A DNA stretch of 64,000 bases from NCBI RefSeq assembly GCF_988242995.1, contig NZ_OZ547043.1, one strand, 5' to 3'. Position numbers and translations under genes: made by a program. Below, in pieces: positions 4,187-62,259 of this stretch (its first letter is position 1; every line of letters begins with the position of its first letter). Under the pieces are notes generated by a model. The model saw only the letters and a list, made by a program, of their open reading frames with translations. It was not told where the DNA came from and did no database searches.

Positions 4187-4373
4187 ACAAAAACCTTACA
4201 TTAACGCTGGTTATGTTTAGGGTGGCGTATATTAAGGTTTTTTATGAATTGTGACAGCTTTTTACCATTAATAGGTATGACTATTGCGGCACGTTATTTT
4301 TACACTGGTTATAAAAGTTGCCGTTTGCGTAGAATGTAGACAAAAGCGTGGTGTCAAGGAGGGGAGGTTAACG

Positions 4374-5663
4374 CAGGGCAAGATTACGAAAGCCCGCTCC
4401 CCGCAAGGACTGACGCGAGATAGTTTCTGCCCATGGCTGCTTTTCGCATCTTACGTCTTAACCCTGCCTTGAATATCTTATCATTCGTTAAAATATTAAT
4501 AGCGATGTGCCGTATCCCTGAATATAATTCTGCGGCGTTTCCTCTTCTTATTTTGCAGTCGTCTTCATTCATTACCACGTCCAGACGCCAGTGCAGCTTA
4601 TTCTCCACGTGCCAGTGGTTTCGGATTGCTGTGGCGAACTTCTCTGCGGTTAAATCAGCAGAACTGATATAATATCTGACCGTCATTTCTGGCTCTTTCT
4701 TTTGTTCTGCTATTATTGACCGAAAGGAGACTGCCACACATAATTTCTTCAGTCCTTTCCATTCAAACGTGAAATCAATAAGTTCATCAGGGACATCGCA
4801 AACAATATGAAGACGGATTTCTTCTCTGCCGTGACTCTTTTCACTAATGGCGTAACTGTCATGCTCTGGATTATTTAATTCTTTCAGTGGAAATTTTTCC
4901 TCAAAGGCTTTATTAAGCCGCCCCTGGTTTCCTTTTACAGCGAATAAATAATCACCGCCCTGTTTTTGTATCTTCTCTGCAATATCTTTCTGGCAACCCA
5001 TCGCATCAGTTGTGATGATTTTTCCTTTAATATACAGCATGTTAAGAAGTTCTGGGATAGCTGTAATCTCATTAGATTTCTCATCCGTTCTGATCTGTCC
5101 GATGACCAGACTGTGCATTGTTGAGAACGCACTAATGACATGAATCGCTCCCCTGCGGCGACTCTTGTCATAAGAATGCCGGAGTGTTTTTCCATCGATT
5201 GCAATAACGTCTTTATCATCTGAAGTATGGCAATCTCGCATCCAGTTAATAAAGCACTCGTGAAATTTTGAAGGACTGATACAGGATACAACTCTGGCGA
5301 TGGTATCGTGAACAGGAATACCATTTTCAAAATCACCATATTGTTTTAAAAAATCGAGATGTGTTTCCCCAAAATCCTCTATATCTTCCCAACCTTCTGC
5401 ACCAGAAATAACGGCACAAATAGTCAACAGTAGAATATCCGATAATTTATGTTCCACTTTCCAGGCTTGTCTGTAATCGGGGATAATAGAAATATGCTCC
5501 ATCAATTTTTTAAGTTCCATTTTGTTCTCCTTAATTATGTAAGGAGTATTTGATCATGTATAAGCAATAAAAACAGCTTTAGGTAATGAGGAATATCTCA
5601 ATTTTTAAACATAAAATGCGAATTATTTAGTACAAAAAAGCAGCGTTACGTGATCTTTCCCTG
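4374..5663 (-). mobile_element. ISAs1-family insertion sequence (H-repeat / ISEc1-like), ~1.29 kb
   Basis: Contains H-repeat transposase ORF; imperfect terminal inverted repeats beginning CAGGG (left CAGGGCAAGATTACG near 4374, right ...ATCTTTCCCTG ending near 5663). Boundaries approximate. Confidence 0.6.
4384..5520 (-). CDS. ISAs1-family transposase (H-repeat-associated protein, YhhI-like), 378 aa
   Basis: ORF track [32 protein letters not shown]..., characteristic of Rhs-associated H-rpt proteins; strong AAGGAGA RBS upstream. Confidence 0.9.
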
Positions 5664-5743
5664 GTGTACTTCTGATGATCTTTCCCTGGGTTAAACAGGT
5701 GGTGAAGGGAATGAAGAATGGGATATCCGGCGTATTACGCGAG

Positions 5744-5780
5744 GTATAAAAATAAAAGCCGGGAGATTGTCACTCCCGGC
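5744..5780 (-). terminator. Rho-independent terminator downstream of the Rhs immunity gene (hairpin GCCGGGAGATTGTCACTCCCGGC flanked by T-runs on both strands)
   Basis: Perfect GC-rich inverted repeat at ~5758-5780 with T-run on the minus strand immediately after. Confidence 0.5.
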
Positions 5781-5786
5781 AACATA

Positions 5787-6068
5787 TTATTTTTTTATTT
5801 CATTATATCTGATAAAAAAAGTATTTAGTGCATCATGTTCATCTTGTGAGAACAATAAAATAATTTTATCCCATGAATGTCCTGTTACTCCATAATAGTC
5901 TTCAATATAAGATTGAAGCCTTATTAATATCTCAATATTGACGATTTCTTTTGGCTCTCTCATTTGCCATCCATCCAGGAAAGCTTTTAACGCCGATATG
6001 GTATGCCTGCTTAAATATAAAGCTGGTCTTTTTTCTATCATATCAATCAGTTTAACAATATCATTCAT
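5787..6068 (-). CDS. Putative Rhs immunity protein (RhsI-like), 93 aa, no recognised family
   Basis: Small ORF starting 2 bp after the rhs stop, AT-rich like the rhs 3' toxin-encoding end; this position is canonical for the cognate immunity gene. Function by position only. Confidence 0.55.
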   Translation of the reverse strand: MNDIVKLIDMIEKRPALYLSRHTISALKAFLDGWQMREPKEIVNIEILIRLQSYIEDYYGVTGHSWDKIILLFSQDEHDALNTFFIRYNEIKK

Positions 6069-6070
6069 AA

Positions 6071-9000
6071 TTAAAACCTTGATGGAGTAATGGTGTATTC
6101 GCCAGGAGAGTATATATCATTCAGCCAATCTTCATACTTTATACCAGAAGGATTCATATTATCAAAAACTGTATCACCTACTTTTATTGCTTCATGATGA
6201 CCATTAGTTGCTATATTTTTACCTATTCTATCACTCCATATATTGCCAAAGGCGCCTTGTTTATTTTTAGTTTCGAGTATGAGATGCTCACCATTTACCC
6301 CAGCTTGTTGCATTTTACTTTTTAACGCTGCGGCAAATTTATCGCATTGAAAAAGCTGTTTAAACTTATCACTTATTGTTGTTGCAAGATCCCTTGTTTT
6401 TGCGATATCGCAAATGGTTAATCCTAATGGATCAATATAACCAAGGGGATTATGAACATATGCATAATTGTTTATCCCGCCTCTCAGCCCTATCGGATCA
6501 CTCACCAGGTACATCCCGGTTTCCGGCTCGTAATACCGGAACCGGTTATAGCACAGCCCGGATTCCGCATCCTGCCACTGTCCTGCATACAGCAGGCCGG
6601 GGTCGGCTTCCGGGTCCAGCTCCCCACGCGGGTCCGGGTAGCCGGTGTCTGCGGGCAGGCTGAGTGCCAGCCCCCACAGGCTGGTCTGTCCCGGTCGCCA
6701 GACGGTTTTACCTTCACTGTTAAAGAGCATCAGCGGCCGGCCCGTCAGGTCGCTCACCGCATGATTCGTCCGCGTCACCCACTGCGGGGCCACGGACGGA
6801 TGCGCCTGCCGTACCCGGCTGCACTGCTGGCTTATCAGCTCAAAGCCGTTAAACACCAGGTGCCGCACACTGTACAGTTTATCATCGCGGTATTCCCGGA
6901 TTTCCGCAATACTGTCGCCATCCCACAGGTACGTAAAACGGATTTTCTTCCGGTCGCAGCGTTTCTCTGTTCGTCTGCCGCTGGCATCGTGGCGGTATTC
7001 CCACTGTTCACCCTGTGCGCTGCAATACCCGGTCAGCTGGTCCCGGCTGTCCCACCGGAACCGCTCTGTTTCCGGGCGGTAACCGTCACGGTGTCTGGTG
7101 CGGCTGACCATCCGGCCTGCGGCGTCATAGTCATACTGCGTGTTTCCGGCCTGTTTCAGCCGGTGGCCTCCGGCATACTGGTCAGTCTCTTCACTTATCC
7201 GGTGCCTGCCCGCAGACTGCGCCTTCAGGTAGCCGCAGCTGTCATAGCCATAAGTCTCATCGCCTTCGCCATAGCCCAGCCCGGTGCCTGAGGCTGTCAC
7301 CGCCGTGACCTGGCCGTTCCGGTCCAGCCGGTACTCCCGCCGTGTTTCCCGTCCGTAGTCTTCCCGGCTGGTGACAGCCGACACATTACCCGCGCTGTCG
7401 TAACGGTACTCCCGCACCAGTGAGGGGAGCAGCCCGCCCCATGTGGCTTCCGCCGGGAAAAATCCGGCGCGCTGGCTGACAGCCTGACCGGCTGCATTCC
7501 AGCCCTGCTCACAGGCAAAACCCCGGTTACTGTGCCGGAGCACTTCACGTCCTGCCTCATCACGGCTGAACGTCAGCGTCTCATCCCCCGGCAGGATAAC
7601 CTCCGTCAGTTCTCCGGCGGCGTTGTAGCGGTAGGTGGTTTTCAGCAGGGATTCACCGGGGTGTCTGTCGCGTTCATCTTCCGGTGGCAGGATACAGCGG
7701 ATGACGGTGTGTTCATCGGGGTGGTGGTATTCAATGGCCCGTCGGCCCTGAGTGGTGACATTCACCCGGCCGCGTTCGTCATAGCCGGTGCGCTGTGATG
7801 TGCCGTCCGGGCTGAAGATACCCGTCAGCCTGCCGGATTTGTCATACGCATACTGCGTTTTGCCTTCCGGCGTGATGACTTCTGCCAGGCGGCCTGCGGC
7901 GTCCCGGCTGTAGAGGATAGTTTCCTCCAGGCCGTTGACCCTGGCGGTACACAGGCCATCGGCGTCATAGCGGTAACGCCAGACCACGCCGCCCCAGTCA
8001 CGCTCTTCCGTCACCCGGCCGCAGTTATCCAGAACATAAAGATATGACTCACCCTGCGGATTGATGACTTCTGTCAGTTGCAGCGTGTCTTTATCGTAGC
8101 GGTACTGCCAGCGGTGGCCTTCACCGTCCGTTCGCGCCACCGGCAAATCAAACGGGCCGTACTCCATTGTCCAGACAACGCCATTGCCGTCCGTCCAGGC
8201 CAGCAGGTTGCCGTGGCGGTCGTTGCGGAATCCTTCCGCGCCGGTTCCAGTGCGCTCAAGGCCGCTCAGTTTATGGTGCTGCTGCCACTGCAACCGCACT
8301 GACTGACCGCCGGGGCCGCGCATCTTCACCGGCAGGTCGTGACCACTGTATTTGGTGTGGTGTTCGCGGCCCATCACGTCGGTGAGTGTTTCCGGCCGGT
8401 TGTGGCGGTCGTACTCTATGCCCAGACGCCGTTCATCCTGGCGGAATATCCCCGACAGCAGCCCCTGAGCGGTGTATGCCAGCCGGGTCTCTTCGCCCTG
8501 TGGCGACACCTGACTTACCGGCAGGCCGCGTTCATCACACTGCTGTGTCCACGTCTGCCCGGCAGGGTCGGTGATGTTGCTGAGCAGGCCGCGCTCATCA
8601 TAGCGGTACAGCCACTCCGCGCCGTCTGCCGCCGTGTAACGGCTTAACTGACCGAGTGCGGCGTTGTCTTCAAATTTCTCCACCCGCCCGGCAGGGGAGT
8701 GGCGGGCCAGCAGGTGATGGAATTCATCCCATTCATACGTGGTGGTACTGCCGTCCGGCGCGTCTTCCCGCAGGATATTGCCGTCAGGATCATAGTAATA
8801 ACGGTGAATGCCCTTGCCGTCCGTCACGGTGGTGCAGCCGTCCCCATAGTCCAGCGTGGCGTTGTAATAGCCCTCCGCCCCGGTGACGGTCACGCACCGG
8901 CCCTGTGTATCGTAGGTGAAACGGCTCCACGTCTGGTCGTTATCGGACCAGCGGATGATCCGGTCCGCATCGTCGTACTCATAAAACAGGTGGTAGTCCA

Positions 9001-10735
9001 GCCGCGCATCCGCTTCTGTCAGCCGCCCCCGCGCATCCTGTTCGTAGGTCGCCAGCGTCTGTATGCCGTTATCCGTGCGGTGAATGGCTTTCAGGTAGCC
9101 GCTGGCGTGGTACGTCAGTTTAAGCCGGATCCCGTCAGTGTGACTGACACCTGTGATCCGGTACTGGCTGTCGCGCTCAAACGTGATGCGGTTGCTGGCG
9201 GTGTCGCTCATCCCGCCCAGCATGTACATCCGGTCTGCGGGGCTGTGTGCCAGACGGTCATCGCTGGTATCGTCAGTCACCGGGTGGCGCAGACGCATTC
9301 CCGGAAAGGCGTCATAAAAGAAGCGGCTGCTCAGTGCATCCCTGTCGAACAGCTCCAGGTAATCATCGCGGCGGCGCAGAATGTACTGGGCGTGATACGG
9401 GTTAACCGCCGTATCACTGTCACCGTCGAAGGCAAATCTCAGCGTGGTTCCCTGGCTGATGATATCCACCCGGTTTCCCTGTTCACGCACCCAGGCGTAT
9501 TCGCTCCAGGAGTCGCTCCAGCCCACGCCCGTCAGGCCATGCAGTGGCAGTACAGAACTGTGGAAACGGGTGAAGGAGAGGGGGAGTGTCTGGCCCAGCG
9601 TAAAGTCGGTACGTTCGTCGCAGTATGCGCCGGTTACCGGATCGACAGGATCTGTTACCCATCTGATGACTTTATTGGCAATACTTTTTAACGACTTACC
9701 TGTTTTCCCCAGCAACGCGCCGAGCTTTGCCCCCAGCAGCTTCCCGCTTTTCCCCAGCAGGTTTCCCAGTTTGCCGAGTCTCGCCAGATTCTTCAGTTTT
9801 CCCAGCAGTCCCGCTGGCGGCAGAAGATAGCTGGCTATCGTTATTCCCCCCAGGATCATTCTCTGCCACGGCGGGAACTCCGGCTGGATATCCAGATAGG
9901 TGACCTGCTCACCCCCAATAAAGACGTCCGGCGAACCTTCCACGATTGCCGCACTGCACTCCAGTTTGTCCCCCTTGCGTGCAGCAGGCTGATTGTTGAT
10001 AAAGACGTTGCTGCTGCCCTGGGCTATCCTCGGCGGTTTGTTCTCCTTGTCGCAGAGCGCCGTGTCCTCACCGGCTTCCGGGAAATCCACGTCTTTTTTG
10101 ATTTCGCCACGCCCGCCCACCATGGTGGCAAACTCCATTAATACCGGACCGGCGGGAAACAGAAGCGATGCGCCGGCGCTGACGCGATCCATAATACCGG
10201 CATTGCTGTCCGTCAGGGTGATAACAGCGTTCCCCCAGGCCTTCGCCAGTGGTACTGCTTTTTCCGCTGCCGATTCAAGCAGGTCAGTGGCAATATCCCC
10301 CCATGAAGGTTCCCCCTGTGGTAGAGAGGGTATTGCTTCAGTCAGGGGAGGAGGGGGAAGGGTGACGGCGGCCCTGGCAGCGGGCTTTCCGTTAATTTTT
10401 ACATTTTTAGAACCAGTATTGATGGCCCCGTCCTTGTCACAAAAGCTGTTTATCCATGACTCAAGCTGGTTCTGTTTCTCCTCCACATAATCACTCGCCT
10501 TATAGCTGGCATACATCAGCGCAGGCACCAGAACCAGCGCATAAGGGCCGGTGGCGCAGGCGGCCATAATCAGGCAACCTTCTGCGATAGTTACTATCGC
10601 CCCCAGCACGGCCCCTGCCAGTGCCCCCAGAAAACTTTTATGCTGAATTTCATCGTCCAGTCTGGCGGCAGGTGGGCCGGACTTCTTTGCTGCCAGCATC
10701 TCTGCAATGGCTTTGTCGTTGGCTGCCCGTTTCAT
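6071..10735 (-). CDS. rhs: Rhs-family T6SS effector: N-terminal prePAAR motif ([10 protein letters not shown]) and transmembrane segment, PAAR domain, YD-repeat core, DPxGL cleavage motif, unrecognised 115-aa C-terminal toxin domain; 1554 aa
   Basis: ORF track 1554 aa; repeated YD/RYxYD motifs, PAAR motifs, ...[27 protein letters not shown] near C-terminus. Start could instead be Met13 (about 10699). Confidence 0.9.
   Translation of the reverse strand: [1554 protein letters not shown]
6074..6418 (-). other. Variable C-terminal toxin domain of the Rhs protein (residues after DPLGL), AT-rich, family not recognised
   Basis: Base composition shifts from the GC-rich rhs core to AT-rich downstream of the DPxGL motif, typical of displaceable Rhs-CT/immunity cassettes. 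Confidence 0.7.
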
Positions 10736-10800
10736 CTAGCTGGCGACCATCGCCCGCTGCGACTGCATTCGCATTGCCAGCGTACCGCCTGCGGTCGCTC

Positions 10801-10886
10801 CCTGTGGCCCGCTCTGTCCTTCGCTCATTGGTTTTATCCCTGTGGCCCGCTCTGTCCTTCGCTCATTGGTTTTATCCCTGTGTCTG
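10801..10886. repeat. Direct tandem repeat, 38-bp unit CCTGTGGCCCGCTCTGTCCTTCGCTCATTGGTTTTATC x2 plus partial third copy, in the eagR-rhs intergenic region
   Basis: Read directly from sequence at 10801-10838 and 10839-10876, then CCTGTG. Confidence 0.85.
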
Positions 10887-11348
10887 TCAGCGCGGCTGGT
10901 CCTGTTTGATATTCTTCTCCGGCGGTAATGGTGTGAAGCTCTTTATCACATCGAGCAGCATCGTCTTTTGACTGTTCTTAAGGGGTAAAGACGTACTGAA
11001 CGTGAAGGTCAGCAGCGTATCACCACGCCGCTGAAATACGGCTATCTGGCTAATCCGCCCCTGATTCCCTTCATCTTCCGGACCGTTCCAGGAATAATCC
11101 AGCAGCCAGGCCGGGGCCTCTGCCAGAGTGATTTCCCGGCAGGCATGTTCGGTGTAACCGTCCAGCTTGCCCTGGTACAGCGCCAGCGTTTCCTTGTACA
11201 GTTCTGGTGTCAGGGTTCCCTGTGGAACGGGTTCGCGGGTAATGACCAGGTTGATGCCACTGTTATCTGTGGACACCAGGACCTGCATTGACTGATCCTG
11301 CCATTGCGATGGCAGCTGAATATGACCTTCATTAAAAGTGAACTGCAT
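10887..11348 (-). CDS. DUF1795-family (EagR-like) effector-associated chaperone, 153 aa
   Basis: ORF MQFTFNEGHIQLPSQWQDQSMQVLVSTDNSGINLVITREP... lying between vgrG and a prePAAR Rhs effector; AGGGAG RBS. Confidence 0.75.
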   Translation of the reverse strand: MQFTFNEGHIQLPSQWQDQSMQVLVSTDNSGINLVITREPVPQGTLTPELYKETLALYQGKLDGYTEHACREITLAEAPAWLLDYSWNGPEDEGNQGRISQIAVFQRRGDTLLTFTFSTSLPLKNSQKTMLLDVIKSFTPLPPEKNIKQDQPR

Positions 11349-11375
11349 AAAATACTCCCTGATAATTTGAATGAA

Positions 11376-13277
11376 TCAGTTAATGAAAACAGAACCGCCC
11401 ACGATGGTGATGCCATCCTTCGACAGCCTGATTACCGTCGATTCCCCGACCTGTAGCTGAATGCCATCCGGCGTCAGCGCAATTTTGCTTTCCTCCACGG
11501 CCAGCATAATTTGCTTAATTGCCGTATAAGCCTGTATACCGTCGCCTTCGCCACCATTGTTTACAGCGTCAACATGCACTGAACCGGCAATCGTGCCTCT
11601 GTCCTGAAAAACATCCTCAGATAAAGACCCTTTTAGTACGCCTGTGATTTTGTGGCCTTTTTCCACCGTAAGAAGGCGGTTACCTTCCTGGATCGTGACC
11701 GTCTGGTCATTTTTTACGGTTTCGCGGTGATCGTGTTTTACGGTGGTGGTACGGTCGTTGAGTACCTCGGTATCCATGTTCTTCTGGGCGTGGATGTAGA
11801 CCTGTTCTTTCCCTGTCGCATCGTCAAACTTCAGCTCGTTAAACCCGCTGCCCATATATGTTTTGGAGCGGATGGTCATCTGCGTCTTCGTTCCCGGCAG
11901 GCTGCCCGGCGAGCGGTTATCTTCGTGGTAGGTGCGCCCCATAATGATCGGCTGGTCCGGATCGCCGTTGAGGAAGTCCACAATGACCTCCTGACCCACA
12001 CGCGGTATCGCCAGATTGCCGAACCCGGCTCCTGCCCACGCCTGTGCCACACGGATCCAGCACGAACTGTCCTGGTCTGCCGGGTTATAGCGGTCCCAGT
12101 TGAATTTCACCCGCACCCGGCCATGCTCGTCGCAGAAGATTTCCTCTCCCGCAGGCCCCGTCACGACGGCGCTCTGTGGACCGTCCACTGACGGCTTTGG
12201 CTTCGGCTGTGGCCGCCACGTCCGGTCTGCCGGGATTACCACAAACTGGTTCTCCAGCGCCGTCCCCGCGCCCCGCCGTCCCGGCACCGCCTGCGGCTGT
12301 TCGCCGTGCAGTTCGCTCGCCACCACCTGCCATTCCCGGTTCAGGTTCGCCTGCGGATGCTCCGTCAGCACAATTCGCCGTCCCGGCCATATCTCCGGCG
12401 AGCGGCTCATTCCCCGCGCGGTTTCTGCGTTGTTTCGCCAGCCGTCCATCTGCCAGCGGGCAAAGTTCTGCCCGTGGGCGCTCTTGAAACGCCCGGGGTA
12501 GTCATACACTTCATACTGCGTGCGCTGGTAGTCCTGGTGCTGGCCTTCCTGTTCAAAACGTCCGGCCCAGCCGGGGCGTTTAAAGGTGTAGTCTTTGGTC
12601 ACCACGGAAGAAGGGCGGATTTGTGCGCTGTAGCGGAACTGGCTGATGCAGAGGGTGCTCACCTCGGTACGGGTGTTCGGGTTCCATGGGATTTCAAAAG
12701 ATTCGGGCAGATGGCGGACTGTGTCGCACAGCACCAGGCTCTGGTCGGTACTTTTGTAAGCATGCTCCTCATAAAAGAAGATGCCTTCCTCCGCCGCCAT
12801 CCGGCACAGGAAATCGTAATCAGTCTCACCGTACTGGACACAAAACTCACGGGAAGGATGCGGCTCGCTGAACAGCGGACTCCATTCGGTCACCCCGTTT
12901 TCCTGCAACATCGTGCCGAGGATGCTTCTGATGTCCTCGTTCTGGAAGATACGGAAGTTCTGACGCAGTCCTGCCCGCCACAGCGGCGGGCGCACCTTCA
13001 TGCTGTACAGCATCTGGTTTTTGTCGTTCTCCCCGAGTTCAAACCAGGTCACCACGCCTTTCACCCGGCGCTGTACGTCATCGCCCTGCCATACCGTCAG
13101 GTAGGCCATTTTGTCCAGCACCTGCGCAAATTCAAGGTAGAGAAACTGCTGACTGACCAGAGAAAGGTCAAGGGAAAAAAGTGAAGAGAGTGACTGGGTG
13201 AGATGAAAGGAGACCACCGCAAAAGCGTCCGGTGGCAGGCCGTCCACTTCCAGTGTGAAACGTAATCCGGTTGACAT
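11376..13277 (-). CDS. vgrG: Type VI secretion system spike protein VgrG (Rhs-element Vgr protein), 633 aa
   Basis: ORF track translation contains MSTGLRFTLEVDGLPPDAF... ending ...KDGITIVGGSVFIN; start moved to Met13 (ATG at 13277 with GGAGG RBS). Confidence 0.9.
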   Translation of the reverse strand: MSTGLRFTLEVDGLPPDAFAVVSFHLTQSLSSLFSLDLSLVSQQFLYLEFAQVLDKMAYLTVWQGDDVQRRVKGVVTWFELGENDKNQMLYSMKVRPPLWRAGLRQNFRIFQNEDIRSILGTMLQENGVTEWSPLFSEPHPSREFCVQYGETDYDFLCRMAAEEGIFFYEEHAYKSTDQSLVLCDTVRHLPESFEIPWNPNTRTEVSTLCISQFRYSAQIRPSSVVTKDYTFKRPGWAGRFEQEGQHQDYQRTQYEVYDYPGRFKSAHGQNFARWQMDGWRNNAETARGMSRSPEIWPGRRIVLTEHPQANLNREWQVVASELHGEQPQAVPGRRGAGTALENQFVVIPADRTWRPQPKPKPSVDGPQSAVVTGPAGEEIFCDEHGRVRVKFNWDRYNPADQDSSCWIRVAQAWAGAGFGNLAIPRVGQEVIVDFLNGDPDQPIIMGRTYHEDNRSPGSLPGTKTQMTIRSKTYMGSGFNELKFDDATGKEQVYIHAQKNMDTEVLNDRTTTVKHDHRETVKNDQTVTIQEGNRLLTVEKGHKITGVLKGSLSEDVFQDRGTIAGSVHVDAVNNGGEGDGIQAYTAIKQIMLAVEESKIALTPDGIQLQVGESTVIRLSKDGITIVGGSVFIN

Positions 13278-14020
13278 AGCAACCTCCGTGAAAATGAATA
13301 ATAATCCGCACATATTGCATGTACAACATGTCGGGTAATGAGATAAGCGGGCCGGCTTCAGGTGTTACCGGGGAATATCAGAAAAGTGTCATGGTTATGT
13401 GAGAATTTTGTCCGGGATTTTACTTCAGAGAAACGGGGGTCTGTTGAGTCAACAAAATAATCACAAACTCAACTGACGGGTTCACGATGTTATTAAGGAC
13501 AGGCTCGTATATTACATCGAGTAACAAAAAAACACCTGATATGCAAAGTTAAACCAATATTCATAATGTCTTTTTATTCACAGTAATAAATAATTCAATA
13601 AACATCATTGAAATGAATGATGGTTTGTATAAGGAATATACGCTACCGCCCCACCCTGATAACATGATCTGCACATTGCCATCTTAACGTCGTTAGACGC
13701 TGGCTTAATAGTGAATATTTTAAATTAGGAATTTATCAAATCCACTTGATAAATAGATTGTGTGAATAATATAGAGATTAATGATGCCTGACTGCGCTTT
13801 ATATTATAGCCGATTCTTTTATAGTGATGAAAATTTAGTAATAGCATTGTGCTCTACAATTGGTAGAAACACGAATTTGATTAAATTGCATATCTAAATA
13901 TCTCGTAAATATCCGAAAATGAATAACCTTCGATTTCAGACGACCAATAAGGTCTTCCCTGTTTTATTGATAAATAATAACAGAAGGCGATACATCACTC
14001 TTTGAGTTTGAACTAACTAA

Positions 14021-28254: not shown

Positions 28255-28320
28255 ATAACGGCGGGTGCCTGAAGCTTTCCGGTTTCAGGTTTACTCTGAG
28301 GTCTGGAAAGATGAAGCCCC
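28255..28320 (-). ncRNA. Predicted Sok-like antisense RNA for hok copy 1 (position inferred from hok/sok architecture)
   Basis: Inference only: antisense to the hok leader / mok start region; no promoter verified. Confidence 0.25.
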
Positions 28321-28409
28321 AGGAGATATTTCTATCAACCCTGGGGCTGCCACTCCAAACCCAAACAATTTGGATGGTAGTCCCTTCTTCGCATGGAGGC
28401 AATATAAAC

Positions 28410-28562
28410 ATGCTGACGAAATATGCCCTTGCGGCAGTCATAGTGCTGTGTTTGACGGTGCTGGGATTTACGCTTCTGGTCGGAGACTCGCTGTGTGAGT
28501 TTACGGTGAAGGAACGTAATATTGAGTTTAAGGCTGTTCTCGCTTACGAACCGAAGAAGTAG
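28410..28562 (+). CDS. hokE: Hok-family toxin (HokE-like), 50 aa, copy 1
   Basis: [50 protein letters not shown]; GGAGG RBS; in-frame upstream mok-like extension in ORF track (28311). Confidence 0.8.
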
Positions 28563-28757: not shown

Positions 28758-28823
28758 ATAACAGCGGGTGCCTGAAGCTTTCCGGTTTCAGGTTAACTCT
28801 GAGGTCTGGAAAGATGAAGCCCC
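28758..28823 (-). ncRNA. Predicted Sok-like antisense RNA for hok copy 2 (position inferred)
   Basis: Inference only, by symmetry with copy 1. Confidence 0.2.
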
Positions 28824-28912
28824 AGGAGATATTTCTATCAATCCTGGGGCTGCCACTCCGAACCTCAACAACTCGGATGGTAGTCCCTTCTTCGCATGGA
28901 GGCAATATAAAC

Positions 28913-29065
28913 ATGCTGACGAAATATGCCCTTGTGGCAGTCATAGTGCTGTGTTTAACGGTGCTGGGATTTACGCTTCTGGTCCGCGACTCGCTGTGTG
29001 AGTTTACGGTAAAGGAACGTAATATTGAGTTTAAGGCTGTTCTCGCTTACGAACCGAAGAAGTAG
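28913..29065 (+). CDS. Hok-family toxin (HokE-like), 50 aa, copy 2
   Basis: [50 protein letters not shown]; differs from copy 1 at two residues. Confidence 0.8.
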
Positions 29066-29816: not shown

Positions 29817-29907
29817 ATTAGAGAATGATGACAAACGCAAAACTGCCTGATGCGCTACGCTTATCAGGCCTACGTGGTCCTGCAATGTATTGAATTGGCA
29901 AGATTTT

Positions 29908-51541: not shown

Positions 51542-51653
51542 AGTCAGAGTGAGGGGGGATGTGCTGAGCGTTCCCATTACTCTCAGCCCGAGCGTGTTGA
51601 TAGCAATTAAGCCCTCTTAATTCAGGAGGGCATTTGTATTACCGGAGGTTTAG

Positions 51654-54218: not shown

Positions 54219-54848
54219 TTATTTAACCGTCCAGGCACGGGAATATTGACGGTCGGCAAACAACTCTTGCAGGCCATTAATTTGTTTCAGGCGCAGCACC
54301 TCGTCGCTGTCCATTCCCAGCTCTTTGCCAATTTTATTATCGTCCCATCCCAACTGGCTGAGTTCACGGACGATTTCTGACATGGCAGTGATTTGGTGAC
54401 GTCCACGGGCGCGATTATGACGAATAGTCGCGGCGATGCGTTGATTACGCGTACCTTCCAGACAGGTCACCGGCAAATAACCTTTTAAGCGTAATTTTAA
54501 CGATGATGAGCCTTTACCAATTTCATGGCGGTGAAAACCATCCACGATTTCCAGGGCATTTTTATCCGTATGCGTGACCACAATGGGTTGGGTAAAACCA
54601 TCTATTTCAATGGATTTTTTCAGCAGTTTTTTTTCGGGTGGTGCCACGTTGTTTGGGTTGTAATCATTAGGCATAAGTTGGCTGTTTTTAACCCACAGAA
54701 CGCAATCCACTGGCTCTTCTCGAAAGGGGCTAACCTGATGGATCGCCATGCGGATTTCATTAATCGCTTTGATGCGATCGTCTTCCGGCAAGCTGGCGAG
54801 AAATTGGGTTAAATCCTGCGTTAATCGTTGTTGCATAGTATCCCCCAT
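54219..54848 (-). CDS. ybdM: ParB-like nuclease-domain protein YbdM, 209 aa
   Basis: ORF track; 5' end overlaps ybdN 3' end by 28 bp. Confidence 0.85.
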   Translation of the reverse strand: MGDTMQQRLTQDLTQFLASLPEDDRIKAINEIRMAIHQVSPFREEPVDCVLWVKNSQLMPNDYNPNNVAPPEKKLLKKSIEIDGFTQPIVVTHTDKNALEIVDGFHRHEIGKGSSSLKLRLKGYLPVTCLEGTRNQRIAATIRHNRARGRHQITAMSEIVRELSQLGWDDNKIGKELGMDSDEVLRLKQINGLQELFADRQYSRAWTVK

Positions 54849-56041
54849 TCCTGACGTTTTCCTTTTATTCGTTCGTTATAACGCTGATAGTTCTTCGCTT
54901 TGGTCGGGCTAAATGATAATGCCCGACACCAGTAATCGTTATTGAGTAAAACTTTGCATATTCGCCGCCAGGAGGGGATATCTTTCGCGCCAATGTCCCC
55001 TTGCTGGGTTTGTGGAACCTCGATGCCTTTTTTCTGATACCAGTGCAAATAAATGGCGATTTTATTGCGATAATGCTCAGCTGTTTTCTCCGGCATGCTG
55101 TTGAGTAGCAATAATGCATACTCCTGCCAGTCTAAATGTTCGGGCTTGAGGATTTTCCGATGACCATAAAAATGGTTGTCATGTCCGGCGTAAATGCCGC
55201 CACTTTTTACCCCGCTGACTCGTGCGCACATAGCAGCCCAGCGATCCGGTTCGATAACGTGATAGAGCCATAATCCTTGCCGTTGTTCCGGACCAAAAGG
55301 TTCGCAAATTCGCATATGACGTAGAGGAACGCCTGCCTGATACATTATATTATACAGTGGGTTACAGAGGCGTTGATGGCTAGCATACCAGGTCCAGATA
55401 TCAGCGACTTTCCAGTCGTAGATGGGGTAAATGTACCAGCTATGACCGCCTGGTGCGGCAGTGGTCCAGGGCTTATCATCGGCAAAACGTTGTTTATTTA
55501 AACTGGCGATGGCGACAAAACGGTTGTAGGACTCATCCGCACGGATGCCGATCATCATCGCCGCCGGACGTTTTTGTGAAAACCATTCGGCAAACTCACG
55601 CACAAATTGTTCGAAGGTCATGCCTGGCTGGTAAAAGGAGAAAAAGTCAGGATCGGTTATCGCATCTTGCGGAGGCTGACGTACCCATTCGACATCAGGT
55701 TCCCAGCACTGCCATTCGGGTTGGTATTGTGATAGGGAATTTTGCGTTGTAAGCGGGAGCGCAACCCAGTAAAACTCTTCGATGACATCGGTGTACAACT
55801 CGCGCAGAGACTGAACATAGTTAATGGTGCAAGAGAACTGAGCTTCCCAGTCGATAAATAAAACACAAATTTTTTTGCCCATTTGTCGGGCAAGTTCGGC
55901 GGTCAGATGCAGCATTAATCCGGAATCTTTACCACCCGAAAAAGAAACGCAGACGCGGGGTAGGGTGTTAAGTGTCCAGGTAATACGTTCTTTTGCAGCT
56001 TCCAGAATATTCAGTGGAAGCGGGATTTTATAAATAGACAT
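54821..56041 (-). CDS. ybdN: PAPS-reductase-like (phosphoadenosine phosphosulfate reductase family, SGGKDS P-loop) protein YbdN, 406 aa
   Basis: ORF track MSIYKIPLPLNILEAAKERITWTLNTLPRVCVSFSGGKDSGLMLHL... Confidence 0.85.
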   Translation of the reverse strand: MSIYKIPLPLNILEAAKERITWTLNTLPRVCVSFSGGKDSGLMLHLTAELARQMGKKICVLFIDWEAQFSCTINYVQSLRELYTDVIEEFYWVALPLTTQNSLSQYQPEWQCWEPDVEWVRQPPQDAITDPDFFSFYQPGMTFEQFVREFAEWFSQKRPAAMMIGIRADESYNRFVAIASLNKQRFADDKPWTTAAPGGHSWYIYPIYDWKVADIWTWYASHQRLCNPLYNIMYQAGVPLRHMRICEPFGPEQRQGLWLYHVIEPDRWAAMCARVSGVKSGGIYAGHDNHFYGHRKILKPEHLDWQEYALLLLNSMPEKTAEHYRNKIAIYLHWYQKKGIEVPQTQQGDIGAKDIPSWRRICKVLLNNDYWCRALSFSPTKAKNYQRYNERIKGKRQEWGILCNND

Positions 56042-56187
56042 CTGAAAACGCTCTCTGAACGTTACGGGGTGACTCGTGAGATGAATCCGTTAATTATAGG
56101 GTAAACGAAGCAAGATAGAGCACATTATTTTATATTCACACAATGAATCAATTGATGCGTAATATAACATTTATCCGTGGTAATAAA

Positions 56188-57090
56188 TCAGAAGCTATCA
56201 TTTAAACGATCTATGAATCGTGAGAAGACAAGGTTGTTCAACGAAGCCTTGTTATAGGAAATATAAAGTTTAACCGCAGGAAGTGGTCGTTCCAGTTTTA
56301 TCTCTTGTAACTTCAAAAAATCACGATGTAAATCGTACAGTTCGGTGGGCACAATGCCCAATAAGTCAGTAACAGAAATACTATTAATTATCGTCAACAA
56401 AGAAGAACTGCGAAATGAAATTTTACGGTTCATAAAACGTTCATCTATGTCCATTTGAATTTCGTCAATCCCTGCTGATTTAGATATCAACAAGGTGAAT
56501 TCTTCGGCGATAATTTGTTCATAGTTACTGGTATCGGTAATACGAGGATGTTTATTGCTACATATAAGAGAATTGCGAATAGTATGTAACGGCATGCAGA
56601 TGACAGAGCGGCTAATTACTGGTTGTAGTGTAATTGCCAGGTCAGTTTTGCGTTGAACCAACAGTTCTTCGGCATTTTCAGCTGAAAGCAGTATGTCATG
56701 GCATTCTATATCGATTGAAGTATCTTGTCTAAGACAGCGGATTAGCATGTTGTTATTAGTACAAGAAATAAGCTGAGGACCGTAGATAATAAAATTTTTC
56801 TTTAGCTCAGACTTATTAACAATATTGATCGTTTGTTCAAGGCCTCTGAGATTTTTCTCAAGATGATGATGCAGATTTAACCCTGTCGTAGTCGGCGCGA
56901 TACCTTTCCCTGAGCGAATGAATAACGGGTCATTAAATTGCGCACGTAAACGTTGTAACGACTGACTAACAGCAGAGGGCGTTATATATAATGATTCTGC
57001 TGCTTTGCTAATGCTGAGGTGTTGATAAATGCACTCAAATATGACCAGTAAATTCAGATCAAATTTTTTTAGGTCATAAAGATTCGCCAT
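56188..57090 (-). CDS. ybdO: LysR-family transcriptional regulator YbdO, 300 aa
   Basis: ORF track; start moved to MANLYDLKKFDLNLLVIFECIY; markedly AT-rich gene. Confidence 0.85.
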   Translation of the reverse strand: MANLYDLKKFDLNLLVIFECIYQHLSISKAAESLYITPSAVSQSLQRLRAQFNDPLFIRSGKGIAPTTTGLNLHHHLEKNLRGLEQTINIVNKSELKKNFIIYGPQLISCTNNNMLIRCLRQDTSIDIECHDILLSAENAEELLVQRKTDLAITLQPVISRSVICMPLHTIRNSLICSNKHPRITDTSNYEQIIAEEFTLLISKSAGIDEIQMDIDERFMNRKISFRSSSLLTIINSISVTDLLGIVPTELYDLHRDFLKLQEIKLERPLPAVKLYISYNKASLNNLVFSRFIDRLNDSF

Positions 57091-57297
57091 AACATACTCC
57101 GTTATATTATCTCTTCTATAAATCATTCATTTGTTCAATAATGTTGCTGTTGTATTTATTTGTATTATGTTTTTTTGCTTAACTCAGAATTAAGTTTTTC
57201 TAAAATAGCACAGCCACTTAGGGCAGAGCGAGCAATTCATGCTTTTTTAGGATGGTTGAAAAACAGGGATATATTTCAACCATCCATGAATTATCTT

Positions 57298-58044
57298 TTA
57301 TTTATTCCCCATAATGATATTAAGCGTTTTCTGATCGGGCAACCCCACGGCCTGTTGCAGCGTATTTTCCTTACTCATGTAGTAGATAGCTGGTGTGACA
57401 TTTGCCCCCAGATCGTCCATGAGTTTTTCGTTGTCGCTTAACACTTTCATTTGCTCTGTACTTACGTTTGCAGGCACGTTTAGCTTAAGCTTGCCACCAG
57501 AGGCTTCATATTCTTGCCAGGTTTTTGCGGGATCTTTGGAGGCAAGAATTGCCGCTGCTGTCGCCGGGCTTTCTGGCTTGATAACGCCAACCAACAATGT
57601 TCTTAATTGCACTTTGCCAGAATCTACCCACGGGCGAGCCTGCTGCCAGAACTGTTTACAATATGGGCAGAACGGATCGGCGAAGACGTAGACAATGACC
57701 GGCGCGTCTTTTTTACCGTCGAGGAGCCAGTGGGATTGTTCCATCCGTTGCCACATTTCGCGTCCGGCTGGTGCGTAAATTTCTTTTTCGATAAGTGTGT
57801 TACTCAGGTTTTCACCTTTCTCGTTGTACATGTAACCGGAGATAGCGTGCTTACCATCTGGAGTCAGGTAGATGGTGACGCCCATATCCTGATACTTTCC
57901 GAGATAACCTTTCATTCCTCCGGGAGCATCGAATGTTTTGATGATCGTAATACCCTGTTTTTCAATCGCTTTTACTGGATCAGGAAGTTCCTCTGCGAAG
58001 GCGATTGCAGGAAGCAGAGCCAGTAAAAGTATCTTTTTTAACAT
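57298..58044 (-). CDS. dsbG: Periplasmic thiol:disulfide oxidoreductase DsbG, 248 aa
   Basis: ORF track; start moved to [17 protein letters not shown] (signal peptide); CPYC active site. Confidence 0.93.
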
Positions 58045-58329
58045 TAATTTGTCCTTTTCAGTCAGTGCAAAAGTCGGGTAAAAGGCATAACCTATCACTG
58101 TCATAGGTAAGAGCTTAGATCAGGTGATTGCCCTTTGTTTATGAGGGTGTTGTAATCCATGTCGTTGTTGCATTTGTAAGGGCAACACCTCAGCCTGCAG
58201 GCAGGCGCTGAAGATACCAAAGGGTAGTTCAGATTACACGGTCACCTGGAAAGGGGGCCATTTTACTTTTTATCGCCGCTGGCGGTGCAAAGTTCACAAA
58301 GTTGTCTTACGAAGGTTGTAAGGTAAAAC

Positions 58330-58979: not shown

Positions 58980-59149
58980 ATTTCCTTCGTCTTTCGCGCT
59001 ACCAACTCCGGCGCGAAATACTTCGGAAATTCACCTAATTCTTCGGGTGCTGCGGCACCCGATTTTCTTCCCCGCACCATGATGCAAGCTGCATCCAGGT
59101 AGCCGCAGAGGCCGCTTGCATGATGATGTTTAAAGCCCAGGAGATAAAC

Positions 59150-60835: not shown

Positions 60836-61264
60836 TTAACGCACAACCAGCACCGGCAAATTGGCGTGGCGGATCACGCTCGAGGCGTTAGAACCCAACA
60901 GATGAGTTGAAATTGATGGGTTACGCGAACCAATCACTACTACATCTGCATCAAGTTCTTTCGCTAACTCGTTAACTTCATCCCGCACACTACCAAAACG
61001 GACATGTTGCTTAATGCGGGAAGGATCGATGGTGAAGTGGCTGACCATCGTTTGCAAACGTTCTTCTGCTTCATGTTGCAGATGCTCTTCAAAACGACGT
61101 ACATCAGCGGCAAAACGGTGCAGGCTCAGGCTGGCTGACCCCGGTAGTACGTGAAGTAGATGAATAACTCCGTCATCCTGGGCGAGGAATTCAGCGTGGC
61201 GAACCGCTTTGTCGCTCAATTCCATTTCGAAAACATCCACTGGCATGATGATTGTTTTGTACAT
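60836..61264 (-). CDS. uspG: Universal stress protein UspG (YbdQ), 142 aa
   Basis: ORF track; start moved to [21 protein letters not shown] (ATG 61264, AAGGAGAGA RBS). Confidence 0.93.
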
Positions 61265-61387
61265 AAGCATTCTCTCCTTGTTTTTGCATGTATACATAAC
61301 AGCACATTATTGGTTATGAATCTATGATTTGCGAGGCTGATTTGATCTGAATTTGCTATTGAGCTGGAAAATAAATAAAACCAGGCG

Positions 61388-61477
61388 CTACCAGCGTTGT
61401 TCAAGGTATAGCACTGCAGCAACAATAATTGCGGCTATGAATATATAAAATGCAGTGATACCGAGAGCTTCGCTCAT
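61388..61477 (-). CDS. Hypothetical small hydrophobic protein, 29 aa (MSEALGITAFYIFIAAIIVAAVLYLEQRW)
   Basis: Short ORF below the track threshold, found by reading the uspG-rnk intergenic region; single predicted transmembrane helix; weak RBS. Speculative. Confidence 0.25.
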   Translation of the reverse strand: MSEALGITAFYIFIAAIIVAAVLYLEQRW

Positions 61478-61619
61478 ATGAGGTTCCGCAGATGAATAAC
61501 CAGTTCAGATTAGAATGCTGCGCTTAAGAGCAAAATGATAAATCTGGTTGATATTTGAGCGGAAAGAGGATGCGAGTGCATCCTCTGGGCAAAGCGAGTT
61601 ATCGCTTGTGCAGATGGGA

Positions 61620-62030: not shown

Positions 62031-62259
62031 TTTTACTCCATGTCGTCGGTACTGCGAGTGTCGCAGATAAACATACCCAAAAGAAAACCCTCACCGTCAG
62101 GCGGCGAGGGTTTAACTCACATGATGATACTGACTGTTGCTCACTCTTTGAAGTGATTTGCGTCACATTCAGGGAATTCCTCAATGTAGCGCATTATGTA
62201 TAAATCTTAATCGTCATGGTTTATGGAAGACGAATTAGCGTGTTTTGTAAATCAGAGGA

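Follow-up and report, generated by a model that had tools for sequence, protein, structure and literature searches.

The LysR-type regulator gene ybdO of Escherichia coli and the DNA upstream of it are markedly poorer in G and C than the genes around them, which raises the question whether this composition is the mark of a foreign gene or a property of an old resident of the chromosome. The locus was studied in a stretch of 64,000 nucleotides from contig NZ_OZ547043.1 (the window), which was matched by 5422 of 5426 complete E. coli genomes (best match 99.3%) and thus represents an E. coli chromosome. At window positions 1-14000 the content differs from that of strain AF39. In near-identical genomes the gene is annotated in RefSeq under the name citR, and it is flanked by ordinary core genes. 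The product of 300 amino acids was recognized by the CitR equivalog model NCBIfam NF047710 (453.5 bits, cut-off 400; residues 1-294 of the 295-position model). It consists of an N-terminal winged helix-turn-helix of the LysR type (Pfam HTH_1, residues 12-70, 67.8 bits, cut-off 26.6) and a C-terminal co-inducer-binding domain (Pfam LysR_substrate, residues 137-298, 39.9 bits, cut-off 28), and this effector domain is the hypervariable part of the protein. Among the LysR-type proteins of E. coli, YbeF and LeuO are its closest relatives and share the domain architecture, but their models were the next best NCBIfam matches with scores far below the cut-offs (167.8 bits against 277 and 99.1 bits against 262, respectively), which makes ybdO a paralogue outside these families. 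The gene leuO is likewise AT-rich and silenced by H-NS.

Translation of ybdO starts at the ATG at position 57090, which is preceded by a GGAG Shine-Dalgarno sequence, is the annotated start and is identical in 22 aligned genera. Therefore, the spacer between dsbG and ybdO comprises 207 bp. A preceding sequence-only reading had described about 170 bp of AT-rich DNA upstream of the gene; the AT-richness of this DNA was confirmed, but the length was too short, since it rested on the start of the longest open reading frame at position 57126 (312 amino acids). The features of the locus are compiled in the table.

Features of the ybdO (citR) locus; positions refer to the window
Feature	Position	Strand	Basis
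ybdN (PAPS-reductase/DUF3440) and ybdM (ParB_N/IbrB-like), reported CitR-repressed pair	54219..56041	-	annotation, Pfam, RNA-seq of PMC9068703
Polymorphic allele block: ybdN codons 1-41, spacer, whole ybdO, 5' UTR to +34	55919..57163	.	fixed differences
ybdO-ybdN spacer, GC 0.356, 146 bp	56042..56187	-	composition, alignment
citR (ybdO) CDS, LysR-type regulator of 300 amino acids, alpha-type allele	56188..57090	-	RefSeq annotation, NCBIfam, Pfam, composition
Downstream H-NS-dependent silencing element (DRE, +27..+164), within the CDS	56927..57064	-	coordinates transferred from PMC4720273
dsbG-ybdO spacer with ybdO promoter and 106-nt 5' UTR, GC 0.30	57091..57297	-	composition, published TSS
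LysR-type dyad CTTAA-N7-TTAAG (contains T-N11-A), +3..+19, candidate CitR auto-operator	57178..57194	-	inferred
Likely extended -10 element TGcTATTTT of the ybdO promoter	57202..57210	-	inferred: position fits published TSS, cross-genus conservation
Stable hairpin immediately behind the stop codon of dsbG; stem of 12 bp, lacking a U-tract	57250..57285	-	folding
Upstream H-NS-dependent silencing element (URE, -250..-176), overlaps the dsbG 3' end	57266..57340	-	coordinates transferred from PMC4720273

The interval from 56188 to 57297 has a GC content of 0.359 in comparison to a window mean of 0.524 (z = -3.07 among all 1110-bp sliding windows), and just 1.1% of the sliding windows of this size are as poor in GC. 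The trough, defined by values below 0.42 in 300-bp windows, spans about 55850 to 57350 and thus reaches downstream beyond the left edge that the sequence-only reading had assigned to it; over these 1.5 kb the GC content is 0.37, clearly below the host average (z = -3.1 to -3.7). With a GC content of 0.373 in the coding sequence and a GC3 of 0.355 (0.580 in the 38 other mapped genes of the window; next lowest 0.459), ybdO ranked at the bottom of all 39 genes for GC (z = -3.74), GC1 (z = -3.40) and GC3 (z = -3.46). The codon usage is also outside the normal range (Karlin distance to the other genes 0.493 versus 0.257 in the sampling null, z = 6.6), rare codons are more frequent (6.7% versus 3.2%), and residues with AT-rich codons (FYMINK) are enriched in the protein (0.323 versus 0.224). 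The neighbors are only mildly low in GC (ybdN 0.472, ybdM 0.468, dsbG 0.469). The sole other equally AT-rich stretch of the window comprises the tips of an Rhs/VgrG island at about 4.3-6.7 kb. The AT-richness and the deviating codon usage, which had been proposed and named as a check in the sequence-only reading, respectively, were therefore both found.

The proposal of an older horizontal acquisition, which had been derived from this composition, is the weak point of the sequence-only reading. A common slot, ahpCF-[dsbG]-ybdO-[ybdNM]-ybdL, was found in 78 species of Enterobacteriaceae from more than 15 genera, so the distribution of ybdO is not patchy, and its absences within E. coli are due to IS-mediated deletions or frameshifts. 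In each of the 78 species the GC content of ybdO is below that of the flanks (median difference 0.106, minimum 0.04), and therefore any acquisition must predate the radiation of these genera. No tRNA gene is present in the whole window, and neither an integrase nor a transposase or IS element nor flanking direct or inverted repeats occur around ybdO, where only chance-like short two-copy repeats were detected; a genomic island was rejected for this reason. Synonymous differences amount to 58-73% between the allele lineages of Escherichia and about 76-92% between genera. Despite this turnover, GC3 remains at about 0.29-0.43 in Escherichia, Citrobacter and Salmonella and at about 0.36 in all Escherichia alleles, and therefore the AT-richness is maintained and does not stem from a recent import. 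What maintains it might be selection that favors silencing or a mutational equilibrium at this locus. In genera richer in GC, the gene follows its host from below (Enterobacter 0.459 versus 0.551; Klebsiella 0.447 versus 0.553). Taken as a whole, the interval very probably represents citR together with its regulatory DNA, an ancient resident AT-rich LysR-type gene which is nearly silenced by H-NS.

Silencing by H-NS, likewise suggested from the sequence, had already been published for other strains. H-NS covers ybdO in strains K-12, SE11 and SE15 according to ChAP-seq, and a mutation in hns derepresses it; silencing was mapped to elements at -250..-176 and +27..+164, both of which are required (PMC4720273). 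In E. coli K1, binding of H-NS was demonstrated by EMSA, the derepression amounted to 2.2-2.4-fold, and acid relieved the silencing (PMC9141747). Early stationary phase, mutation of hns and acidic pH are thus the published conditions under which repression is lifted. A further H-NS-independent negative element exists, whose position varies by strain (PMC4720273). Transferred to the window, the upstream element has an AT content of 0.667 and contains 160 A/T hexamer runs per kb (window 21 per kb), and the downstream element has an AT content of 0.616. Near-matches to the high-affinity motif of H-NS occurred 3.5 times per kb in the region and 0.94 times per kb in the window, but this is explained by composition, as the 5 matches observed are no enrichment over shuffled sequences of the region (3.2 +/- 1.9); a specific enrichment was therefore discarded. 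Bound to the AT-rich stretches that flank the promoter on either side, H-NS would keep ybdO nearly silent.

Beside its composition, the locus is conspicuous by its variation between strains. The ybdO gene of the window shares only 79.8% identical nucleotides with that of K-12, whereas the flanking genes diverge by 0-5.5%, and the 1.25-kb allele block as a whole differs by about 20%. Among 5344 genomes, 1771 showed at least 95% identity, 3568 about 79-80% and only 5 a value of 90-95%, so the population is bimodal. When five strains of the window's class (alpha) were compared with five of the other (beta) over positions 54800-58100, 238 fixed differences were counted, the great majority within the allele block; none was found from 57164 to 58100, which gives a sharp edge at 57163, and a sparse tail extends leftward. 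Between the classes, pS is 0.69-0.73 in ybdO and 0.13-0.16 in the flanks, with between-class values near saturation in these simple Nei-Gojobori counts on 11 E. coli and a few outgroup loci. Within classes, ybdO and the flanks hardly differ (pS 0.117/0.124, 0.142/0.146, 0.056/0.034 and 0.427/0.400, respectively). In comparison to K-12, pS is 0.71 and dN/dS about 0.03; over the ybdO comparisons dN/dS is about 0.03 to 0.09 and resembles that of the neighbors.

Alpha alleles are present in the divergent strain SCPM-O-B-8794, too, and beta alleles in Escherichia sp. MOD1-EC7003 (neighbor-joining bootstrap 300/300 and 297/300), and a rarer third lineage was found in an E. coli-like contig. Peaks of ybdO divergence recur in Enterobacter, Citrobacter, Klebsiella and Salmonella. 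The window itself carries the alpha lineage joined to a promoter of the K-12 type. The 1.25-kb allele block is thus exchanged horizontally at a resident locus. Beyond this, we are somewhat inclined to regard ybdO as a hypervariable allele cassette in a fixed slot of the Enterobacteriaceae, whose lineages persist across species or are swapped by homologous recombination. Several lineages of ancient divergence would exist, at least three of them in E. coli. Their extent would be chiefly the effector-binding domain, the 5' UTR, the spacer behind ybdO and the start of the ybdN coding sequence, and recombination would act via the conserved flanks. The DNA-binding domain and the operator would be fixed, while the sensing half would be exchanged. 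In the literature that was searched, no paper described an exchange of ybdO allele cassettes.

The part upstream of the block contains the promoter. In K-12, transcription of ybdO starts 107 bp upstream of the ATG (PMC4720273), which corresponds to position 57196 of the window after an indel of one nucleotide in the alignment. The likely extended -10 element lies in a gTGnT-AT(T/A)TTAG block that is kept across genera; it was not listed in a generic promoter scan, which gave no -35 match for it and in which promoter-like sites were no more common than in shuffled sequences (6 versus 5.6) and no terminator was detected. TTAA-N7-TTAA occurs 4 times in the window (0.8 expected), and its sole copy near ybdO is the dyad CTTAA-N7-TTAAG. 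Both half-sites are invariant across all E. coli alleles, with variation in the spacer alone, and the right half TTAAG is kept across genera. Binding of CitR to its own promoter has been reported from a ChIP-exo peak upstream of citR (PMC9068703). The conserved dyad is a candidate CitR operator, as judged from its form and position, so bound CitR would block its own promoter. The hairpin behind dsbG has a minimum free energy of -19.3 kcal/mol (z = -5.0), and in Escherichia sp. E1V33 and Citrobacter a hairpin occurs in the same place with another stem sequence.

The suggestion that ybdO regulates the adjacent ybdNM pair had also been reported before: the renaming of ybdO to citR was based on RNA-seq of a deletion strain and on the ChIP-exo peak, and the deletion raised ybdN by log2 5.5 and ybdM by log2 2.5 (PMC9068703). 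The spacer between ybdO and ybdN, which differs by 29.5% from that of K-12, contains a sigma-70-like match (56151-56124); no terminator-like site was found in it by a generic scan, nor a second CitR-type dyad, and no FNR site (TTGAT-N4-ATCAA) was seen by eye in the window allele. Because this spacer lacks both a terminator-like hairpin and a second dyad, ybdNM are probably controlled through the promoter and operator of ybdO by read-through transcription. Of 77 informative species, 61 carry the pair downstream of ybdO and 16 have ybdO without it, so ybdNM cannot be the only purpose of CitR. Other reported effects of YbdO are the activation of kpsM in K1 (PMC9141747) and, in an avian strain, the repression of ahpC, oxyR, katG and others. 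An assignment of YbdN and YbdM to a defence system was dropped, since PADLOC gave marginal matches only (YbdN: DndC 2e-5, BrxP 1e-4; YbdM: a methyltransferase model 7e-4); no NCBIfam model passed for either protein.

The composition would also be explained if ybdO were an acquired foreign gene, which is silenced by H-NS because it still bears the unameliorated signature of its donor. Its low GC content, its deviating codon usage, the bias towards AT-coded amino acids and the binding of H-NS are all consistent with this origin, and the gene was handled as horizontally transferred in a previous study (PMC4720273). However, the constant slot with GC below the flanks in every species and the lack of mobility genes and repeats argue against it, and a relic signature would have decayed over the synonymous turnover observed, so that we consider a foreign origin quite improbable. 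There is some chance, albeit a limited one, that the AT-richness is passive, i.e. that a silent, weakly codon-selected and rarely recombining gene has drifted to an AT-biased equilibrium and that binding of H-NS is the consequence. Bacterial mutation is generally AT-biased; the uniform GC3 of the Escherichia alleles, the tracking of host GC from below and the lack of H-NS motifs beyond composition would fit as well. Against passive drift, other genes of the window with low expression do not reach such low values of GC3, GC1 and GC2 are depressed too, even in the amino-terminal domain that is invariant throughout the family, and the strong purifying selection indicates that the gene is in use.

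Similarly, the differences between strains can be read, as by Higashi et al., as accelerated substitution in H-NS-bound DNA due to relaxed constraint or a higher local rate. It is true that ybdO is among the top 50 substitution rates of E. coli orthologues and that dN is somewhat higher in H-NS-bound regions (PMC4720273), and in each genus compared no other protein of the locus has diverged as far as YbdO. Nevertheless, ybdO and the flanks have equal pS and pN within an allele class and the excess is confined to comparisons between classes, while the neighbor-like dN/dS shows that constraint is undiminished. Both classes lie at about the same distance from the outgroup alleles (74-76% for alpha, 77-79% for beta), so no single fast branch exists, and neither the bimodal distribution nor the sharp edge of the block is expected from a locus-wide acceleration. 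This was therefore rejected, and the reading as a whole appears highly improbable. The recombination control in PMC4720273 relied on the tree topology within E. coli and would not reveal an allele that had been replaced in a clade's ancestor. With regard to ybdNM, the increase in the citR deletion of BW25113 could be a polar effect, because both genes follow immediately behind the deleted one and are read in the same direction; CitR would then exert no real control, the increase would reflect read-through from the construct, and the adjacency would be inherited synteny. The short distance on the same strand without a terminator-like site, the fact that both the single ChIP-exo peak and the single dyad lie upstream of ybdO instead of ybdN, and the species with ybdO that lack the pair all speak for this. 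However, the pair follows ybdO in most species, the polymorphic block includes the spacer and the 5' end of ybdN as if they were one evolving unit, and the architecture fits a true autorepressed citR-ybdNM transcription unit equally well. An absence of control thus seems rather unlikely.

The closest known system is CitR/YbdO (b0603) of K-12 itself, with the same slot, a length of 300 amino acids, identical first 110 residues and the same promoter, TSS region and dyad. The window represents the other major allele lineage (79.8% identity at the DNA and 89% at the protein level), and the differences concentrate in the effector-binding domain, the 5' UTR from +34 on and the ybdO-ybdN spacer. Deeply divergent, recombining allele classes of E. 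coli core loci are known from fimA, fliC and gnd, the latter beside the O-antigen cluster. In these, too, a short, sharply bounded block with very high synonymous divergence lies between ordinary flanks, and the lineages cross species boundaries under purifying selection within lineages. However, those loci concern surface structures exposed to hosts or phages, whereas ybdO encodes a cytoplasmic, mostly silent transcription factor. As in bgl and proU, paired AT-rich H-NS elements, both needed and the downstream one intragenic, flank the promoter (PMC4720273), but the ybdO locus is a single regulator gene and not an operon of structural genes.

The AT-richness of ybdO, its silencing by H-NS and its link to ybdNM are already known in print. 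AT-richness by itself is a poor proxy for recent acquisition. The strain differences of ybdO represent old alleles and not fast substitution, which changes the use of this gene as an example, so the notion that H-NS speeds sequence change needs a re-test that takes recombination into account. If the interpretation as an exchanged allele cassette is true, a textbook case of H-NS-facilitated sequence diversification would be an allele replacement that silencing merely makes tolerable, and diversifying or niche-dependent selection on what CitR senses would be suggested. Strains compared across laboratories may carry effector domains that are about 16% apart, and the allele classes may explain the differing YbdO regulons and the opposite effects on virulence in K-12, K1 and the avian strain.

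The window is part of an E. coli chromosome, and a 4.4-kb query around the ybdO interval matched 5422 of 5426 complete genomes (top match 99.3%). According to the RefSeq annotation of near-identical genomes, the gene order is ybdL(+), ybdM(-), ybdN(-), citR(-), dsbG(-), ahpC(+), ahpF(+), and the interval comprises citR (formerly ybdO) and the spacer reaching the dsbG stop codon. At 453.5 bits the protein clears the cut-off of the NCBIfam CitR equivalog (400), and it also passes both LysR domains of Pfam. The longest ybdO ORF starts at 57126, but the annotated start is an ATG at 57090, which is preceded by GGAG and conserved across 22 genera. This makes the upstream spacer 207 bp long, not about 170 bp as the sequence-only reading had stated. 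The mechanical ORF start likewise overshoots the real start in dsbG (268 aa from 58104; annotated protein 248 aa from 58044).

The AT-richness of ybdO and its upstream region was confirmed and is unusual in statistical terms (z = -3.07 relative to every window of equal length; 1.1% of these are as low). Of the 39 window genes that were mapped, ybdO shows the lowest GC (z = -3.7), the lowest GC1 and the lowest GC3 (0.355 versus 0.580). Its codon usage departs from that of the other mapped genes well beyond sampling (z = 6.6), and residues with AT-rich codons are abundant in the protein. The genes ybdN, ybdM and dsbG (GC about 0.47) are only mildly low. The sole other stretch as AT-rich as ybdO (GC minimum 0.336) belongs to a type VI VgrG-Rhs island, which comes after nfrA and nfrB and lies between nfrB and cusS; it is associated with orphan tips of Rhs toxins and, in related genomes, with remnants of ISAs1/SymE.

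Features of the ybdO locus and of other loci in the window
Feature	Coordinates	GC	Remark
Whole window		0.524	
ybdO with upstream spacer	56188-57297	0.359	
ybdO CDS	56188-57090	0.373	minus strand
Upstream spacer	57091-57297	0.30	
ybdO-ybdN spacer		0.356	146 bp
GC trough	~55850-57350		
Dense fixed alpha/beta differences	55919-57163		ybdN codon 41 to +34 of the 5' UTR
Promoter-spacer patch	57212-57228		17 bp
ybdO TSS	57196		published, mapped to window
Extended -10	57210-57202		TGcTATTTT
Dyad CTTAA-N7-TTAAG	57194-57178		+3..+19; contains T-N11-A spacing typical of LysR sites
Upstream silencing element	57266-57340		published, mapped to window
Downstream silencing element	56927-57064		published, mapped to window
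Hairpin 3' of dsbG stop	57250-57285		-19.3 kcal/mol, z = -5
dsbG, longest ORF	57298-58104		
Region differing from AF39	1-14000		lowest GC near 5331-6440
hokE/sok modules, two in tandem	28263-28418, 28766-28921		toxin-antitoxin; Rfam sok, 85 and 82 bits
ES036 sRNA match	29866-29907		
cstA-ybdD spacer	51542-51653		112 bp; 182 bp in K-12
STnc70 sRNA, dsbG-ahpC spacer	58178-58271		Rfam, 44 bits, barely over threshold
ahpC-ahpF spacer	58980-59149		170 bp; 244 bp in K-12 and AF39; 128 bp in O104:H21 and O157:H7
uspG	60836-61264		7.2% from K-12, 17.7% from AF39
Site lacking ybdR	61265-61619		in K-12 and ET120, ybdR separates uspG from rnk
rnk leader	62076-62184		Rfam, 125 bits

Between the window and K-12, ybdO shows a DNA identity of 79.8%, whereas the flanking genes diverge by 0-5.5%. 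Nei-Gojobori estimates gave pS 0.71 (corrected about 2.2), dN 0.064 and dN/dS about 0.03 for ybdO, and dS 0.07-0.28 for the neighbouring genes. Residues 1-110 are the same in both proteins, and most synonymous sites of this part differ. In 5344 E. coli genomes, identity to the window allele had a bimodal distribution, with 1771 genomes at or above 95%, 3568 near 79-80% and 5 at 90-95%. The alpha class comprises the window, AF39, 980-2, K56-43, E371, SE15 (judged by primer sequence) and SCPM-O-B-8794, whose flanks fall far outside ordinary E. coli. To the beta class belong K-12, HS-01, O104:H21, strain 53, O157:H7 and Escherichia sp. MOD1-EC7003; the latter has flanks at equal distance from the two E. 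coli groups, but in ybdO its pS is 0.18 against K-12 and 0.69 against the window. Both groupings were recovered in a neighbour-joining protein tree (alpha with SCPM-O-B-8794, 300/300 bootstraps; beta with MOD1-EC7003, 297/300). By the phylogroups of the named strains, alpha would fall in B2-like and related groups, and beta in A, B1 and E. On a contig whose flanks resemble E. coli there is a third lineage (protein P0012), which is 22% away from alpha and 14.8% away from beta; ybdN is broken into two ORFs on this contig.

Higashi et al. explained the many differences in ybdO by a higher substitution rate of DNA bound by H-NS (PMC4720273). In all pairs of a small sample of 11 strains, compared by simple distance methods close to saturation, the pS of ybdO matched that of the flanks (ybdL, ybdM, distal ybdN, dsbG) within an allele class (ybdO/flanks: window with 980-2, 0.117/0.124; with K56-43, 0.142/0.146; with SCPM-O-B-8794, 0.427/0.400; K-12 with O104:H21, 0.056/0.034; with O157:H7, 0.036/0.062). 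An excess was seen between classes only (0.69-0.73/0.13-0.16 for all such pairs), and pN followed the same pattern. Furthermore, the alleles of E. albertii, E. whittamii and E1V33 are roughly equidistant (74-76% from alpha, 77-79% from beta), so that neither class lies on a single accelerated branch. These distances argue that the locus is not evolving faster and that two old lineages are held, and they favour allele replacement or long-lived polymorphism over faster substitution. The recombination control of Higashi et al., a comparison of tree topologies within E. coli, would miss an allele replacement in the ancestor of a clade.

The fixed differences end abruptly, with none between 57164 and 58100, and both classes share the promoter, the dyad and the upstream silencing element. 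In the promoter-spacer patch the window and AF39 have the sequence of K-12-type strains, whereas 13 of the 17 bases are replaced in three other sampled alpha strains. The window thus combines, as a natural hybrid, an alpha gene body with a promoter of the K-12 type.

A similar pattern was found in other Enterobacteriaceae. Species pairs with AhpF and YbdL proteins less than 4% apart differ by up to 39% in YbdO and 53% in its C-terminal domain (Enterobacter cloacae complex, Citrobacter freundii complex, Kluyvera). In DNA divergence profiles, the distal two-thirds of ybdO together with the spacer and the beginning of ybdN form a peak of 30-50%, compared with 2-8% for the flanks; in the Klebsiella oxytoca complex and Salmonella subspecies the peaks are weaker. 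The first about 100 residues are nearly invariant family-wide, and in one Enterobacter-Lelliottia pair divergence switches from low to high inside ybdO, near the boundary of the two protein domains.

With one genome scanned per species, ybdO orthologues were found in 78 Enterobacteriaceae species, including Escherichia, Citrobacter, Salmonella, Enterobacter, Klebsiella, Raoultella, Kluyvera, Leclercia, Lelliottia, Trabulsiella, Franconibacter and Atlantibacter. The slot is constant, with ahpCF (with or without dsbG) on one side and ybdL (with or without ybdNM) on the other, and the GC of ybdO is below that of the flanks in every species (median difference 0.106, minimum 0.04). No tRNA was found in the whole window and no meaningful repeat around ybdO. 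Any acquisition is therefore older than the radiation of these genera. Synonymous sites of ybdO differ by 58-73% between allele lineages and by about 76-92% between genera, and GC3 is still 0.29-0.43 in Escherichia, Citrobacter and Salmonella. Since a decaying foreign signature would not outlast such turnover, the AT-richness is being maintained, either by selection for silencing or by local mutation bias, and this reading should replace the older horizontal acquisition proposed from the sequence.

In some E. coli ybdO is dispensable, as seen from IS5- and IS1-mediated deletions, one IS1 insertion and one frameshift. Members of the gene cluster are decaying in some genomes (compared loci L095, 6049-7270; L090, 3491-4394; L093; L094): besides the split ybdN of the third-allele contig, ybdO is frameshifted in an ST536 strain, truncated by IS1 in JNQH498 and cut by an IS5-like element in ET120, which lost fepE to ybdN. 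A K-12-type E. coli ybdO is present on two short contigs (L004, L005) assigned to metagenome-assembled genomes of Lachnospiraceae and Bacteroides; protein identity to the window is 88-89% for ybdO and 99% for ybdN, and the contigs are almost certainly binning contamination.

The suspected H-NS silencing is correct and already published for other strains. Higashi et al. (2016) used ybdO as a test case for H-NS-bound horizontally transferred genes; it is covered by H-NS in K-12, SE11 and SE15, an hns mutant transcribes it more strongly, transcription starts 107 bp upstream of the ATG, and repression requires an upstream (-250..-176) and a downstream element (+27..+164) (PMC4720273). Direct binding was demonstrated by EMSA, and in E. 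coli K1 ybdO is derepressed 2.2-2.4-fold and acidic pH relieves repression (Fan et al. 2022, PMC9141747). Sequences close to the high-affinity motif of H-NS showed no excess over the prediction from composition. In or beside the upstream element, directly behind dsbG, lies a very stable hairpin without a U-tract; in Escherichia sp. E1V33 and in Citrobacter this position is taken by a hairpin with another stem sequence.

The presumed regulation of ybdNM has likewise been reported. Rodionova et al. (2022) found a ChIP-exo peak upstream of ybdO and, upon its deletion, increased expression of ybdN (log2 5.5) and ybdM (log2 2.5), and YbdO was renamed CitR and described as ybdNM repressor (PMC9068703). 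Reported CitR targets are in conflict between studies, and ybdNM is absent from 16 of 77 species retaining ybdO. Alignment across 22 genera revealed two conserved upstream blocks, the -10 region and the dyad. The half-sites of the dyad are unchanged in all E. coli alleles examined, with variation confined to its spacer, and no other TTAA-N7-TTAA occurs in the ybdO neighbourhood; this dyad is a candidate CitR auto-operator. Because neither a terminator-like hairpin nor a second dyad was found in the ybdO-ybdN spacer, the simplest model would be read-through into ybdNM, with repression acting through the ybdO promoter. The same gene layout also fits a polar effect of the ybdO deletion, which could account for the reported up-regulation.

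Beside ybdO, uspG is unusually polymorphic and may be another locus with divergent alleles; AF39 is nearly identical to the window elsewhere. The differing lengths of the ahpC-ahpF and cstA-ybdD spacers probably reflect a small repeat element that some strains have and others lack.

Taken together, the AT-rich character of ybdO is confirmed, and its first interpretation was largely right yet already published; the allele lineages are a moderate, testable addition. A softened form of the idea of Higashi et al. may hold, in which imported alleles persist because silencing renders them sufficiently harmless.
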